From Candidatus Nealsonbacteria bacterium (GTDB lineage: Bacteria > Patescibacteriota > Minisyncoccia > Minisyncoccales > MHMH01): DNA of 64,000 nt. The translations under genes were made by a program, and so were the position numbers. Location of the stretch: contig JACPGX010000005.1 in assembly GCA_016188865.1 (NCBI GenBank), positions 179,317 to 243,316 on the forward strand, written 5' to 3'. A model generated the notes under the pieces. The model had not been told where the DNA came from. It searched no databases and saw nothing but the letters and a program-made list of their open reading frames with translations. Positions 2,466 to 62,137 of the stretch are shown in pieces; within the stretch, counting starts at the first letter, position 1, and every line of letters starts with the position of its first letter.

Positions 2466-3416
2466 ATGGTTAAAAAAGTAATTGCGAAAAATTTGCCGAA
2501 AGATGTTTTTTTGCATCTTTTGAATATCCTGACTTTTTATTTAAGCATTGTTAGTTTTATTAATCTTTATATCCAATATATAAGCGCTCTTTTTCCGGAC
2601 CAGCTTAGTTTTTATTATGCGGGAACAGCTAATGCCGTCAGAACGTTTACTTCTATACTCATAATAGCTTTCCCCGCATATTTATTGACTTCGTGGCTAT
2701 TAGGAAAAGACCTTAAAGAAAATCCGGCAAAGCGCGAATTCAGATTAAGGAAATGGCTTGTTTATTTTACTCTTTTTATATCGGCAATAACCATTATTGT
2801 CGACCTTATTATTTTCGTTAACCGTTTCTTGGGGGGAGAGCTGACCCCGCCTTTTCTCTCGAAAGTTTTAGTCGTGCTGCTGGTGGGCTTAGCGGTTTTC
2901 GGATACCACATTTGGGACTCTAAAAGAAAGGACGCTGAAAAATCAAGAACTCCCAAAAAACTTTCTTTTGCAGCTTCTTTCATTGTTTTAGCAAGCATTG
3001 CCGCGGGTTTTTTCATAATGGGAACTCCTGCGGAACAAAGAAGAATAAAATTTGACGAGCAAAGGATAAGCCATCTCCAAATATTGCAGAGCCAGATTAT
3101 AAATTACTGGGTCATGAAAGAATCCCTTCCCCAAGAATTGAATGGCTTGGAAGATAGCATTTCCGGGTTTATTGCGCCCAAGGATCCCGAGTCGAATATA
3201 GCGTATGAGTACAATATTATTGGCAATCTTTCATTTGAGCTATGCGCCGCATTTAAAACTTTAAGCAGGGGCAGGGGAGCGGCATACTATAATCCCCGCG
3301 ATTCATTTCAGCAAAATTGGGAGCACGAAGCCGAAAGAACCTGCTTTAAAAGAATAATTGACCCGGAATTGTATAAAAATACTAGCCAGCCCAAAGAAAT
3401 CGTTCCGCTGCGATAA
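2466..3416 (+). CDS. Hypothetical integral membrane protein (several N-terminal TM helices, soluble C-terminal domain)
   Basis: 316-aa ORF with hydrophobic segments (LNILTFYLSIVSFINLYI, ILIIAFPAYLLTSWLL, LFISAITIIVDLIIFV, VLVVLLVGLAVFGY, FIVLASIAAGFFIMG). No family recognised with certainty. Confidence 0.6.
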   Translation: MVKKVIAKNLPKDVFLHLLNILTFYLSIVSFINLYIQYISALFPDQLSFYYAGTANAVRTFTSILIIAFPAYLLTSWLLGKDLKENPAKREFRLRKWLVYFTLFISAITIIVDLIIFVNRFLGGELTPPFLSKVLVVLLVGLAVFGYHIWDSKRKDAEKSRTPKKLSFAASFIVLASIAAGFFIMGTPAEQRRIKFDEQRISHLQILQSQIINYWVMKESLPQELNGLEDSISGFIAPKDPESNIAYEYNIIGNLSFELCAAFKTLSRGRGAAYYNPRDSFQQNWEHEAERTCFKRIIDPELYKNTSQPKEIVPLR

Positions 3417-3474
3417 AGAGGTGCTTGCAGGGTACAGTCTTGTACCCTGTGGATAACTGCCTAATTCTGGGGGC

Positions 3475-3502
3475 TTGACGACATTGTTTGGCGGATTAAA
3501 AT
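3475..3502 (+). promoter_or_regulatory. Sigma70-type promoter for the downstream structured RNA
   Basis: TTGACG (3475-3480), 16-nt spacer, TAAAAT (3497-3502). Confidence 0.5.
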
Positions 3503-3509
3503 AATACTT

Positions 3510-3730
3510 GGGTGCGCACAGCGCAAAGACAGAAGGGAGTGAGTGTCGAGATACGACAGAGATCTCTCATTTCATTTTTCTTCCTTGAGCATATATTCTA
3601 AGATAAGCGAAGGGTTTCCCTAAGCTTGTCAAAGAGTTAGCGATAGGATTAAATCCAAGCTTGGTGGAAAAACGAAGTGGGCTCAAATGCATAAGTATTT
3701 CACGACATTCATTTCCTTCTGTCTTTTGTA
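3510..3730 (+). ncRNA. Structured ncRNA candidate with 6S-RNA-like rod architecture (identity unproven)
   Basis: 24-bp closing helix 3525-3548 with 3703-3726 (21 Watson-Crick pairs, 3 G-U). Second helix 3566-3584 with 3663-3681. The two are separated by a 17/21-nt internal bubble. Apical AAGCTT-containing helix 3622-3628 with 3656-3662. Six non-Watson-Crick positions are G-U on the + strand versus one A-C. Own promoter and terminator; no credible ORF. Confidence 0.55.
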
Positions 3731-3734
3731 TTTT

Positions 3735-3776
3735 GAGGTCCGACCTCCCGACAAATATGACGGGAGATCGGACCTC
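3735..3776. repeat. GAGGTCCGAC-family hairpin (copy A), acting as terminator of the upstream RNA
   Basis: GAGGTCCGACCTCCCG, loop ACAAATATGA, CGGGAGATCGGACCTC, then TTTCGTTTTAGTTTTT. Confidence 0.75.
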
Positions 3777-3793
3777 TTTCGTTTTAGTTTTTG

Positions 3794-3802
3794 TGCTATA
3801 AT
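3794..3802 (+). promoter_or_regulatory. Extended -10 promoter (TGcTATAAT)
   Basis: TG at 3794-3795 and TATAAT at 3797-3802. Confidence 0.5.
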
Positions 3803-3808
3803 AAACTT

Positions 3809-3899
3809 AGCGGGGGAAAAGGCGATGCTCAAAATCCTATCGCCGCCTTATCTCTCGCTTTGCCCGCCGAAGCCTGAAAGGGTGGAGGCGAGCTTTTTT
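3809..3899 (+). ncRNA. Small RNA candidate (~90 nt) ending in a GC-rich terminator
   Basis: Hairpin GGCGAT(3821-3826)/ATCGCC(3839-3844). GC-rich terminal hairpin with GAAA tetraloop (CTCGC 3854-3858 pairs with GCGAG 3888-3892), then T6 at 3894-3899. No known class recognised. Confidence 0.4.
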
Positions 3900-3957
3900 G
3901 TGAATAAAATGTGCATAATTAAGGCAGTTTACTCATATTTTTAATAAAAATAGCAAA

Positions 3958-3985
3958 TTGACCTAACTGCTGGTTTTGCTATTCT
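3958..3985 (+). promoter_or_regulatory. Possible promoter immediately upstream of a long terminator hairpin
   Basis: TTGACC (3958-3963), 16-nt spacer, TATTCT (3980-3985). Confidence 0.35.
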
Positions 3986-3996
3986 AAAGATAGAAG

Positions 3997-4041
3997 AGCA
4001 TCGTAAAGGCGATAGGGGTATCGTCTTTGCGATGCTTTTTT
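3997..4041 (+). terminator. Strong intrinsic terminator/attenuator hairpin
   Basis: Continuous 18-bp helix (3997-4014 with 4019-4036, 2 G-U), GGGG loop, then T6. It contains the first ATG (4032) of the tracked ORF. Confidence 0.8.
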
Positions 4042-4124
4042 ATACCAATATGAAAAAACGTAAAAAAAACCTGCCTGCCGGCAGGCGGGGAAAAATTCAT
4101 TTCGCAGATTTACAGGAAAAAGCG

Positions 4125-4343
4125 ATGAACTGGCTTTGGGTAGTTTTGCTTATTACGGCCATTATGTTTTTGAGGGGGCTTTTAAGCGACATGAATACCC
4201 AGACCAATAGATTGTCTGAAGAACGAAAGAAGTTTCAAGATGAGCTAACCGAAGAAAGAGAAAAGAGCCAAAATCTTTATCTGGAGTTTTACGCTGAATT
4301 AGACAAAAGCATTAAGAAAGCAATTGAAGCTCTCAATAAATGA
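4125..4343 (+). CDS. Small membrane-anchored coiled-coil protein (hypothetical)
   Basis: The tracked ORF starts at 4032 inside the terminator stem. The in-frame ATG at 4125 (MNWLWVVLLITAIMFL, a TM helix) is preceded by AGGAAAAAGCG. ATGA overlap with the next gene. Confidence 0.5.
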   Translation: MNWLWVVLLITAIMFLRGLLSDMNTQTNRLSEERKKFQDELTEEREKSQNLYLEFYAELDKSIKKAIEALNK

Positions 4344-5359
4344 AAAAATATACAATTATCATCGGATTGGCAATTGCCGCAGCTTTGCTTGCAGGCGCTA
4401 TTTTATGGTTGCTGCTCCGAAAGACTAAAGAAATTTCCTACACCGGCCCAATTGAGAAGATATCTTTAGGCGCAGAACTAAATATGCGGACTTCCGCGGT
4501 TTGGATAGCTGAAAACCAGGGTTATTTTAAAGAACAGGGGCTCGATGTGCAAATACAGGGGTTTGCTTCTGGGCGAACTGCCCTGATGGCAATGCTGGAA
4601 GAAGGTAATCTTAATATGGTTACAGTTACCCAAACGCCATTGATGTTCACCAGTTTTAGCAGGAATGATTATGCGATTATAGCCGGAATAACACATTCTT
4701 ACTCCAGCATTAATATTTTAGGCCGCAGAGACCGCGGGATAGAAACACCCGCGGATTTAAAAAATAAAAAGGTGGGGGTTCCCAAAGGCACAACCGCGCA
4801 TTTCTTTTTAGACATATTTTTAACTCAAAATGGTATTCCAAATTCAGATATTGAAGTGGTTGATTTTGCGATAGATAAGTTAGTCCAAGGCCTAATAGAG
4901 GGAAAAGTCGATGCGATTTCCGCTTGGGAGCCGCATATTTTTAACGCTAGAGAAGTCTTGGGCCAAAATGCCACCTTGTTGCCTAATCCCGGTTTGTTGC
5001 GAGAGGATCTTTATTTTGTTGCCAGAAATGATTTTACAAGCAGCCACCCCGATGCCTTAAAAAAGTTTTTGAAAGCAATTGATAAGGCAAACGCATTTAT
5101 AGGGGAAAACAAAGAAACAGCTATAAGCATCGTATCAGAGCGCACAAAATTCGACAGGAGGACGGTTGCTGCTATTTGGGATGCTTATACTCTTCGATTA
5201 TTTTTAGACCAGAATACTTTAATTATTTTAGATGAAGAAGCCAAATGGGCAAGGGCAAAAGGATTAATAGACGGGAAGGTAATTCCTGATTATTTTGATT
5301 ATCTTTACTTAGATGCCCTAGAGGCAGTAAAACCGGAAGCGCTGCAGGTTATTCATTAA
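4340..5359 (+). CDS. NMT1/THI5-like (SsuA/TauA-type) substrate-binding protein, N-terminally anchored
   Basis: 339 aa. N-terminal TM/signal helix, then the pattern IAENQGYFKEQGLDVQIQGFASGRTALMAMLEEGNLNM typical of ABC-type nitrate/sulfonate/bicarbonate binding proteins. Confidence 0.65.
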   Translation: MKKYTIIIGLAIAAALLAGAILWLLLRKTKEISYTGPIEKISLGAELNMRTSAVWIAENQGYFKEQGLDVQIQGFASGRTALMAMLEEGNLNMVTVTQTPLMFTSFSRNDYAIIAGITHSYSSINILGRRDRGIETPADLKNKKVGVPKGTTAHFFLDIFLTQNGIPNSDIEVVDFAIDKLVQGLIEGKVDAISAWEPHIFNAREVLGQNATLLPNPGLLREDLYFVARNDFTSSHPDALKKFLKAIDKANAFIGENKETAISIVSERTKFDRRTVAAIWDAYTLRLFLDQNTLIILDEEAKWARAKGLIDGKVIPDYFDYLYLDALEAVKPEALQVIH

Positions 5360-5363
5360 ACCT

Positions 5364-6647
5364 ATGAAAATAAAAATACAGAAAATTATATTTTTTTTGA
5401 ATATTTTTATTATTTCCTCCATATTTATCGCAGGAACACTTTTGGTATCAGAAGCTTTTATGTTGGGTCAAGCTTATGGAAGATATAACGCAATTAGTGA
5501 ATTGCGCAGCCTATTGGTTAAAGATCGTTTTTTGATCAATGAATTTATATTCAATCCTACGCGGCGAAGTTTGAATCAGCACGAAATTATCCAGTCGCAT
5601 ATTTTAGCCAGCATAAACCAGCAGCTTGTTTCAAACACAAATTCAAAAACGCAAGAAAAATTTAGGATGATCAGCGCAAAAACTATAGAAATTCAAAAAT
5701 ACCTTGATATATTGCAGTCGCAGTTTAGTAATGGAACTGCACCAAACATTATTTCTGAAAAAAATCGCCAAATAGCGCAATTTATTACTCTGCGCATGAA
5801 CGAGCGGGATGGCTTTATCGAAGAATTAAACTCGTCTGCTCTTACCAGAGTAAGATCAATTGTCGCCAATCACCAAGGAATCGAGTTGGCTGTGTTTGCA
5901 ATTTTATTGGGCTTAGTTTTATTTTTTAATGTCATAGAGTTTTATTTTAATGAACGATTAGAAGATATCGATAAGGCAAAGAGCGAGTTTATTTCACTGG
6001 CTTCCCACCAGTTGCGGTCTCCGATCGTTGCCATACAATGGACGCTCGAGGATTTTTTTAAAAAAGTGAAGATCACCCAAGAAGAAAAAAAATATTTTAA
6101 TAATGTTTTCCGCGCTGCCAAGCATTTGGACGAGTTGACAAAATTACTTCTTTCAATTTCGCGCATTGAATCCGGGGCATTTAAAATATCCACGGAATCT
6201 TTTGATTTGGTAGAATTCATCGAAGGTTACATAGATGGAATGCAATCGGTTTGCAAAAAGAAAATAATAACTCTCGATTTTACAAATCATCCAGAATCAT
6301 TAGAATTCAAAACAGATAAAAATGCCTTTGAGAATATTTTGCGAAGTTTGGCGAGCAATGCTTTAGATTATACCAAGCCCGGAGGAGAGGTTGCAATACA
6401 GCTGGAAAAGAAAGATAATTCCATAATTTTAACGGTTAAAGATAACGGTATTGGCATTCCCAAGGAAGAGCAGAGCCGCATTTTTAAAAAATTTGCCAGA
6501 GCGTCAAATGCAGTTAATTTTAGACCTGCCGGCACCGGCTTAGGCTTGTATATCGTTAGAGAAATGGTGAAATTACTCAATGGGAAAATTTGGTTCGAGT
6601 CAGAAGAAAATAGGGGTTCTGTATTTTATGTTGAACTTCCCGCATAG
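5364..6647 (+). CDS. Sensor histidine kinase
   Basis: H-box FISLASHQLRSPI. HATPase_c motifs NALDYT, DNGIGIP and GTGLGLYIVREMV. Two TM segments. Confidence 0.9.
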   Translation: MKIKIQKIIFFLNIFIISSIFIAGTLLVSEAFMLGQAYGRYNAISELRSLLVKDRFLINEFIFNPTRRSLNQHEIIQSHILASINQQLVSNTNSKTQEKFRMISAKTIEIQKYLDILQSQFSNGTAPNIISEKNRQIAQFITLRMNERDGFIEELNSSALTRVRSIVANHQGIELAVFAILLGLVLFFNVIEFYFNERLEDIDKAKSEFISLASHQLRSPIVAIQWTLEDFFKKVKITQEEKKYFNNVFRAAKHLDELTKLLLSISRIESGAFKISTESFDLVEFIEGYIDGMQSVCKKKIITLDFTNHPESLEFKTDKNAFENILRSLASNALDYTKPGGEVAIQLEKKDNSIILTVKDNGIGIPKEEQSRIFKKFARASNAVNFRPAGTGLGLYIVREMVKLLNGKIWFESEENRGSVFYVELPA

Positions 6648-16766: not shown

Positions 16767-16807
16767 GGAGGTCCGACCCCGCACAACTTTTGCGGGGTCG
16801 GATCTCC
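16767..16807. repeat. GAGGTCCGAC-family hairpin (copy B)
   Basis: GGAGGTCCGACCCCGCA, loop CAACTTT, TGCGGGGTCGGATCTCC: 17 bp with one G-U. Confidence 0.75.
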
Positions 16808-46876: not shown

Positions 46877-47322
46877 TATTCTTCTCCTATTATCTGAATT
46901 TGCACCTGCCTTTGCCTGGGTTTGTCTAATTCTACCAAAAAAATTCTTTGCCACTGTCCCATTTGTAATTTTCCATCCATTATATTCAAAGTTAAATTTG
47001 ATGGAAAGTGCAGGGCCAGGCAGTGAGAATGGCCATTTTTACATTCGTCTTGGCAGATATTTACAGTCCTTATAGTAAAATCGTTATGCCTATAGGGTAA
47101 GTCTTTGGGTGACAATTGAGCTAAATGATTTTTAAAATCATCCAATAAAAGCGGTTCGTTTTCATTCAAAACCAAGGGAGCGGTAGTATGCATAGTTTGA
47201 ATATTTAAAAAACCGTTTTGTATGCCGGTTTCTGCGAGAAATGCCTCAACTGCCTTAGTGAGATCGATAAATTCAAACTCTTCTTTGGTATTTAATTGAA
47301 TGACTTTATTAAGTATTTTCAT
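46876..47322 (-). CDS. YjbQ/UPF0047 family protein
   Basis: TTAPLVLNENEP...DF..HL...NGHSHC...LNIMDGKLQMGQWQRIFLVELD matches the YjbQ family pattern. Confidence 0.7.
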   Translation of the reverse strand: MKILNKVIQLNTKEEFEFIDLTKAVEAFLAETGIQNGFLNIQTMHTTAPLVLNENEPLLLDDFKNHLAQLSPKDLPYRHNDFTIRTVNICQDECKNGHSHCLALHFPSNLTLNIMDGKLQMGQWQRIFLVELDKPRQRQVQIQIIGEE

Positions 47323-47378
47323 TTTTTAGCACTAATTTCAATATTACGCATGATACTTTGATAGTCAAGGGCAAAACC

Positions 47379-47403
47379 AAAAGCCCCCTTAGGGGGCTTT
47401 TTT
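47379..47403. terminator. Bidirectional terminator hairpin
   Basis: AAAAGCCCCC TTA GGGGGCTTTTTT. Confidence 0.8.
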
Positions 47404-47472
47404 CCTTCTGCCGAGAATGTAAGCTAGTACTCCGACCGCGGATATGATTAAAATTAAATAAAAAAGCGTCAT
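47389..47472 (-). CDS. Possible 27-aa hydrophobic micropeptide downstream of murC
   Basis: ATG 47472 lies 2 nt after the murC stop. MTLFYLILIISAVGVLAYILGRRKKAP. The stop lies in the terminator loop. Confidence 0.35.
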   Translation of the reverse strand: MTLFYLILIISAVGVLAYILGRRKKAP

Positions 47473-47474
47473 AT

Positions 47475-52886: not shown

Positions 52887-52928
52887 GAGGTCCGACCTCC
52901 TCTCAAATTTGAGTGGAGGTCGGACCTC
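52887..52928. repeat. GAGGTCCGAC-family hairpin (copy C) between convergent genes
   Basis: GAGGTCCGACCTCCTCTCAAA / TTTGAGTGGAGGTCGGACCTC, a 42-nt near-perfect palindrome, then AAAATAT. Confidence 0.8.
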
Positions 52929-62095: not shown

Positions 62096-62137
62096 GAGGT
62101 CCGATCTTCACTCAAATTTGAGAGGAGATCGGACCTC
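62096..62137. repeat. GAGGTCCGAC-family hairpin (copy D), terminator for the minus-strand upstream gene
   Basis: GAGGTCCGATCTTCACTCAAA / TTTGAGAGGAGATCGGACCTC then AAAATAT. On the minus strand it is followed by TTTTATTT. Confidence 0.8.

Follow-up and report, generated by a model that had tools for sequence, protein, structure and literature searches.

The locus belongs to a metagenome-assembled genome of Candidatus Nealsonbacteria (Patescibacteria, candidate phyla radiation (CPR)) and lies within the 64,000-nucleotide stretch of DNA that we analysed, hereafter the window. Genes run in the order nusB, rnc, rpsP, tRNA-Ala, DUF5671, a spacer, p98, an NMT1-like binding protein, a histidine kinase, an S41 protease, L9 and pyrG. 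The genome around the spacer is densely packed with genes, and the spacer itself (3417–4031, 615 nt) is the largest non-coding stretch within the 64 kb. It houses, on the + strand, a promoter, a rod-shaped RNA and a terminator, which together make up the rod gene (3475–3793). The DUF5671 protein encoded next to it (2466–3416) matches the NCBI entry of locus tag HYV47_03855 at 100% identity, and the same organism carries an RNase III gene at 885–1574. Coordinates of the rod gene, of the two units that follow it (units 2 and 3) and of related hairpins are collected in Table 1.

In the longer of 80 related loci, homologues of the window genes at 53–62 kb were found inverted, within 3–8 kb after rpsP, and therefore a large rearrangement has taken place in the window genome. 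One rearrangement breakpoint lies near tRNA-Ala, DUF5671 and the rod (window ~2.1–4 kb). The NMT1-like binding protein and histidine kinase pair (window 4340–6647) was missing from the homologous module of one relative (L099), and the best homologues of the binding protein were at most 57% identical, some of them labelled Deltaproteobacteria or Thermodesulfobacteriota; the pair looks like an inserted signalling cassette. Three relatives carried hairpin-rich, mostly non-coding sequence with strong promoters 3′ of rpsP (L072 2430–4700, L034 12736–13204 and L035 4726–5194), and several kb of mostly non-coding sequence lie downstream of rpsP in such relatives. A 472-nt block was 94% identical between L072 and L034/L035, in surroundings that were far less conserved. 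Elsewhere in the window, a 520-nt gap in the map of open reading frames (ORFs) at 46955–47474 looks like − strand coding sequence that starts near 47322; a frameshifted gene or a run of short ORFs is the probable explanation, and a second RNA locus is not.

Table 1 Features of the rod locus and copies of two hairpin families (window coordinates unless a contig is named)
Feature	Position	Strand	Remarks
DnaA-box 9-mer TGTGGATAA (putative)	3448–3456	+	exact complement of consensus TTATCCACA; 18 bp 5′ of −35
Sigma-70-type promoter TTGACG, 16 nt, TAAAAT	3475–3502 (−35, 3475–3480; −10, 3497–3502)	+	10/12 consensus matches
Predicted transcription start	near 3509–3511	+	
Small 5′ hairpin UGCGC ACA GCGCA	3513–3525	+	variable accessory
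Closing stem P1, 5′ arm, purine-rich	3526–3554	+	core AGAAGGGAGUGAGUGUCG invariant; pairs with 3695–3725
Central bubble, 5′ strand GACAGAGAUCU	3555–3565 (11 nt)	+	nearly invariant; RNAalifold, four lineages
Inner stem P2, 5′ arm	3566–3590	+	21 pairs with 3659–3681
Apical hairpin, variable	3595–3637	+	~20 to 43 nt across lineages
Apical motif GCGAUAGGA and 4-bp hairpin (3646–3656)	3640–3656	+	complementary to unit 2 3833–3843
Inner stem P2, 3′ arm	3659–3681	+	
Central bubble, 3′ strand CUCAAAUGCAUAA	3682–3694 (13 nt)	+	essentially invariant; RNAalifold, four lineages
Closing stem P1, 3′ arm, pyrimidine-rich	3695–3726	+	CGACAUUCAUUUCCUUCUG invariant
Putative intrinsic terminator	3735–3793	+	GAGGTCCGACC-family hairpin (3735–3776, −30 kcal/mol) and U-rich tail
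Unit 2	3794–3892 (RNA 3809–3892)		TGCTATAAT extended −10 promoter, small hairpin RNA, U tract
Unit 3	3958–4343	+	TTGACC/TATTCT promoter; 22–25-bp hairpin at 3990–4043, four mismatches, all G·U
GAGGTCCGAYC hairpin copies	3735–3776, 16768–16806, 52887–52928, 62096–62137		
GAGGYCAGAGGYGCUCUCG family copies	L042 2744–2873, L072 6012–6110, L043 5925–6021, L062 13609–13706, L039 5201–5290		

Homologues and flanking signals of the rod gene

Homologous loci were reached by synteny anchored on the S41 protease gene downstream, and two covariance models were used, R1 built from the window sequence alone and R2 built from four lineages. R1 matched L099 (169 bits), L102 (158 bits) and the eight contigs L106–L113, which represent a fourth lineage (104 bits). 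The rod and S41-L9-pyrG share a strand in all four Nealsonbacteria lineages, with the rod on the upstream side. The genes between the rod and S41 comprise units 2 and 3, p98, the binding protein and the kinase in the window; units 2 and 3 and p98 in L099; and a histidine kinase, a response regulator, units 2 and 3 and a p98 homologue in L102; in L107 there is no gene between them.

Searches of relatives beyond these lineages, which covered ~1 Mb of partial contigs, returned no further rods. R2 gave no added members over ~840 kb of other relatives and, with filters off, nothing at the rod-less S41 loci L101, L114, L115 and L120; no rod was found upstream of S41 in L101 and L114–L120. Synteny based on DUF5671 (contig scan and homologue search) led to relatives 50–71% identical, with unrelated neighbours and no rod, and this family is an unstable synteny anchor. 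Relatives of the substrate-binding protein stood in other signalling operons without the RNA. Eighty metagenomic RNase III loci, in which nusB-rnc-rpsP was kept and the gene order diverged beyond it, held no rod by blastn, nhmmer or covariance models, and four rod/hairpin patterns had no match in viral contigs. A scan for long helices in the intergenic gaps and upstream regions of relatives returned unrelated hairpin families and no diverged rod. One other conserved hairpin family of 100–130 nt (GAGGYCAGAGGYGCUCUCG ... GGGAGCACCUCUG) is intergenic in relatives, lacks an Rfam match and bears no relation to the rod.

The TTGACG/TAAAAT promoter proposed in an initial annotation of the window, made from its letters alone, is present, and TTGAC(G/T), 16–17 nt and TAAAAT precede the rod in all four lineages, with promoters called also in L099, L102 and L107. 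The 9-mer TGTGGATAA is found 17–18 bp 5′ of the −35 in 4/4 lineages (window 3448–3456, L099 6251, L102 240, L107 5700), with differing adjoining bases, and the L099 copy shares bases with the stop codon of the preceding gene. Perfect DnaA boxes number two in the 64 kb, that of the rod included, and one-mismatch boxes occur at 3899–3907 and 3910–3918. A conserved DnaA-box 9-mer at an sRNA promoter is unusual in itself. A replication-origin reading was rejected, as the spacer holds merely three DnaA-type boxes and there is no GC skew switch here.

At the other end, a hairpin and U tract stand just 3′ of the rod in each lineage, with unrelated sequences. The terminator-like hairpins of L102 (−4.6 kcal/mol) and L107 (−12.4 kcal/mol) are weak, and a consensus terminator scan made no + strand call after the rod in L099, L102 and L107. 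For the window, the initial annotation had described a hairpin of a sequence family with a T-rich tail, and the description holds: the GAGGTCCGAC hairpin belongs to a repeat family with four hairpins and 13 pattern matches in 64 kb (1.06 expected), its palindrome (GAGGTCCGAYC...GRTCGGACCTC) being dispersed and located at gene ends. The GAGGTCCGAYC motif was also seen in relatives (L024 3647, L052 6540, L072 3566). Logan contigs from the same organism traverse the rod, and those reaching 3735–3776 end within that hairpin; therefore the rod is single-copy and the terminator hairpin is a repeat.

Structure, covariation and coding status

The + strand from 3505 to 3790 had a minimum free energy (MFE) of −116.7 kcal/mol (z = −8.9), and 0/200 shuffles were as stable. 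Over 3510–3730, the + strand reached −86.7 kcal/mol and the − strand −66.6 kcal/mol. The − strand also folds well by z-score (z = −9.1); it is ~20 kcal/mol weaker because 10 pairs of the + strand MFE are G·U, which agrees with the G-U bias towards a + strand RNA that had been noticed in the window sequence.

The RNAalifold consensus of the four lineages consists, in order, of P1 (~29 bp), an 11/13-nt bubble, a 21-bp P2, a variable hairpin and an AUAGGA hairpin, in rods 175–203 nt long. P1 comprises 22 contiguous pairs (3526–3547/3704–3725), a 2-nt bulge and 7 further pairs (3548–3554/3695–3701); its middle is invariant, including three conserved G·U pairs, and its base and top covary. In P2, which contains single-nucleotide bulges, 98% of cells are paired and the one-sided changes are all wobble-compatible. 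The basal pairs of the variable apical hairpin change compensatorily between lineages, and AUAGGA of the small apical hairpin is invariant in 4/4 lineages. The small 5′ hairpin is non-homologous between lineages, with different ones in L099 and L102 and none in L107. Folded as a single sequence, the window rod has a branched apex with a three-way junction, and its thermodynamic fold partly closes the bubble, unlike the consensus.

Much of this architecture had been sketched in the initial annotation. The closing helix exists, and its length, given as 24 bp, was underestimated; the bubble is real, and its 17/21 nt are reduced to 11/13 nt in the four-lineage consensus. The second helix, put at ~19 positions, is present with 21 pairs, and the branched apical region is represented by the two apical hairpins.

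The rod core was 86–94% identical between lineages, compared with 48–56% at S41 third codon positions, which are near saturation. This comparison shows a rod under far stronger purifying selection than the neighbouring protein gene S41. A palindrome without constraint would have decayed at such divergence. In the model-fitted alignment, 94% of cells pair, and 15 pairs changed on both sides, compared with 5.8 ± 1.7 after shuffling (0/500 reached 15) and 2–4 with slid partners. The helix conservation and covariation in relatives that the initial annotation had asked of a genuine RNA were thus found, across four lineages. The both-sided changes sit in the P1 base and top, the apical hairpin and the 5′ hairpin, where the L107 columns are unreliable, being aligned to promoter sequence. 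A structure-blind MAFFT alignment of the core left just two compensatory pairs, because the P1 middle and all of P2 never vary; these invariant parts are neutral evidence on structure, neither way. Pair positions with G·U in at least one lineage numbered 17, compared with 3 for A·C (binomial P = 0.0013), a count that is partly biased since the alignment was fitted to the + strand. All four homologues (4/4) fold as rods, with a + strand advantage of 7–20 kcal/mol over the − strand.

The ORF that begins with ATG 3687, already dismissed as an 85-aa protein gene in the initial annotation, measures 85, 36, 13 and 26 codons across the four lineages; the changes within it are non-synonymous and coincide with compensatory RNA changes. 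A type I toxin–antitoxin mRNA was rejected on the same grounds, this being the sole shared ORF, and a retron non-coding RNA was rejected because no reverse transcriptase (RT) domain occurs among the neighbour genes in any lineage. At the level of sequence, conservation and covariation in four lineages confirm 3475–3793 as a real, strongly conserved stand-alone gene for a structured + strand sRNA of ~200 nt, as the promoter-to-terminator reading of the window had proposed.

Candidate function and rival explanations

6S RNA is bound by the housekeeping RNA polymerase holoenzyme, for which the 5′ side of its bubble serves as the template of short product RNAs. Within 6S clades the bubble sequence is the most conserved part, and in a true 6S RNA the synthesis of product RNA melts a weak 'downstream helix'. 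The rod may similarly act in trans as a protein-binding scaffold, and by open-promoter mimicry it would occupy the RNA polymerase holoenzyme, a mechanism that we prefer because the size and the stem–bubble–stem layout match 6S and the bubble is most conserved. Speculatively, the 7-bp A-U/G·U-rich covarying P1 segment beside the bubble, which a bulge separates from the rest of P1, may serve as a weak downstream helix. The DnaA box may couple rod synthesis to replication or growth state. Taken as a whole, a stand-alone rod sRNA serving as a trans scaffold, most likely through 6S-like polymerase mimicry, is the best explanation that we can offer, and we hold it tentatively, with somewhat less than even confidence.

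A 6S (ssrS) design had also been suggested in the initial annotation. The stem–bubble–stem outline stood, and 6S membership as judged by Rfam models did not. Rfam returned tRNA alone and no 6S-type match for the window at the gathering threshold, and the proposed check against the 6S-type models gave no match in 246–851-nt slices of the window and L107, even at E ≤ 10. The missing Rfam match, the regular 22-bp segment, the branched apex and the narrow distribution all speak against 6S. In our reading, the rod makes up a new family of structured sRNAs whose architecture resembles that of 6S.

The units downstream are conserved in part of the same lineages. Unit 2 is kept in L099 (6612–6690) and L102 (2480–2550), with covariation in its outer stem, and contains CCUAUCGCC, a segment complementary to GCGAUAGG of the rod apex and unit 3. 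A resemblance of the unit 2 loop to boxA was treated as chance, as it is exact in L102 only and the loop varies by lineage. The U tract of unit 3 stops ~7 nt before the ATG of p98 (4050). The p98 protein has 97–98 aa, a basic N-terminus, one transmembrane helix and a coiled coil, and a Pfam search at E ≤ 5 returned nothing meaningful for it. The unit 3/p98 module is kept in L099 and L102, and three lineages retain TGTGCATAA upstream of the promoter of unit 3.

Such neighbours raise the possibility that the rod is a sponge in a three-RNA circuit, in which apical GCGAUAGGA would titrate unit 2 and so tune the small membrane protein p98. The rod at 3640–3650 is complementary to unit 2 at 3833–3843 in 11/11 positions, a pairing that spans 10 nt in L099 and 8 nt in L102, and unit 2 shows complementarity to the 5′ arm of the unit 3 hairpin (3990–4043) at the p98 start as well. 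The hairpins of units 2 and 3 are conserved and show a degree of compensatory change; in three lineages, GCGATAGG and its complement are clustered across the rod and both units; and the L107-type rod, which has no unit 2, unit 3 or p98 nearby, has a degraded motif. However, this circuit covers ~10 nt, and the remaining ~130 nt of the RNA are equally conserved. The complementary segments of units 2 and 3 are not colinear, a histidine kinase and a response regulator stand between rod and unit 2 in L102, and the whole-molecule duplex energy of rod and unit 2 was no better than shuffled (z = −0.4), such energies among the rod, unit 2 and unit 3 being uninformative or negative. We therefore regard the sponge as doubtful. 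Also at odds with parts of the data is a cis-acting 5′ leader (attenuator or processive-antitermination element) of a same-strand operon ending in S41-L9-pyrG. Consistent with a leader, the rod is invariably upstream of these genes on the same strand, a conserved domain followed by a non-conserved hairpin and U tract is a riboswitch-type leader layout, and the 3′ half of the L102 and L107 hairpins could pair with CCUUC of the rod 3′ arm. Riboswitches and leaders are expected to precede the same downstream gene class with no intervening promoter. Here the rod is followed directly by unit 2, a histidine kinase or S41; a promoter (TTGACA-17-TACAAT, 11/12) lies between rod and S41 in L107; and extended −10 elements were read at the matching place in L102 and the window. 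Such varied neighbours, which seem to have promoters of their own, disfavour the cis-leader, and with a 29-bp P1 too stable for a switch helix we consider it quite improbable.

The 22 contiguous pairs of P1 exceed the usual length requirement of RNase III, an enzyme that the organism encodes (885–1574), and both arms are invariant including their wobble pairs, as if each worked single-stranded. The rod might thus be a precursor cut by RNase III to yield smaller RNAs, for instance its 3′ arm or its Shine–Dalgarno-like 5′ arm, or a double-stranded RNA decoy. This would leave the equal conservation of the bubble, P2 and apex unexplained, and no complementary target was found in the window; we judge it quite improbable as well. 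That the locus is instead a DNA-level palindrome, a MITE-like element or a small protein gene is hardly credible, even though it contains a long inverted repeat, its − strand folds well too (z = −9.1) and an ATG-initiated ORF starts in the 3′ strand of the bubble. There is one rod copy in the 64 kb, at a syntenic site in four lineages; short-read assemblies cross the rod and break just in the terminator hairpin; and the flanking sequences (left, CAGCGC; right, TGTATT) lack a target-site duplication. The MITE alternative kept in the initial annotation thus fails for the rod, the terminator hairpin alone being dispersed. The excess of G·U over A·C favours a + strand RNA over a DNA element, and ORF lengths of 85/36/13/26 codons, with non-synonymous changes that are compensatory in the RNA, argue against a protein gene.

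An extension of polymerase mimicry would make the rod the first 6S-type polymerase-sequestering RNA recognised in the CPR, controlled by the DnaA box and wired through its apex to the unit 2/unit 3/p98 circuit, a combination that we think unlikely. In the literature collection that was searched, nothing linked 6S RNA to the candidate phyla radiation, and nothing turned up on non-coding RNAs of CPR bacteria, Nealsonbacteria included. If the CPR 6S reading were true, replication status would feed global transcription in minimal, episymbiotic cells. As a 6S analogue, the rod would fill a gap in the housekeeping RNA set of reduced genomes and indicate that 6S can diverge past model recognition; if it is not 6S, it would represent a new class of RNA, with a specific partner suggested by its invariant bubble and by a helix that contains wobble pairs. 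The rod is a strongly constrained RNA family outside Rfam, for which promoter and ends are defined and both a consensus structure and a usable model for covariance searches exist.

Comparison with known systems

The likeness to REP-like palindromic terminator repeats, with dispersed copies at gene ends, is confined to the terminator hairpin. As in those repeats, the 3′ hairpin is dispersed, near-identical and GC-rich, and sits at gene ends, where it could sometimes serve both strands; unlike them, the inner part of the window hairpin differs between copies, and homologous rods use unrelated hairpins. At the 5′ end, the comparison is with the E. coli mioC and dnaA promoters, which are under DnaA-box control. 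A perfect 9-mer at a fixed distance just 5′ of the promoter is shared, whereas the rod has one box and a non-coding RNA as its target, the box being putative, read from sequence, and accompanied by no origin sign. The long near-perfect duplex of distant 5′ and 3′ sequences recalls RNase III processing stems, such as rRNA precursor flanks and those of phage T7, but the rod encloses a conserved 150-nt structured domain, and no rRNA similarity was detected.

6S RNA is ~200 nt long and rod-shaped, with a central bubble between a closing and an apical stem, and its arms are described as broken by loops and bulges (PMC8876501). The outline is reproduced in the RNAalifold consensus of the four lineages, with its ~29-bp closing stem, 11/13-nt bubble and 21-bp inner stem. 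In the arms, P2 has single-nucleotide bulges and P1 has 22 unbroken pairs and one 2-nt bulge; the window apex forms a three-way junction, where the internal stem of 6S ends in one capping loop. The rod shares with 6S RNA (ssrS; RF00013) a length of ~200 nt, a closing stem formed by its ends, a conserved bubble of ~11/13 nt and an inner stem, and its own strong sigma-70-type promoter is likewise 6S-like. It differs in its lack of a covariance-model match, its unbroken 22-pair P1 and branched apex, a terminator hairpin within the transcript, and in being known from four close lineages.

A further parallel is Ms1 of Actinobacteria, a 6S-like RNA that binds the RNA polymerase core (PMC9130861). 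Ms1 belongs to another phylum and has no sequence similarity to the rod, which is itself without an Rfam match. Ms1 resembles the rod in having a rod-like, 6S-related structure, in being missed by 6S models and in having been traced by synteny (PMC9130861).
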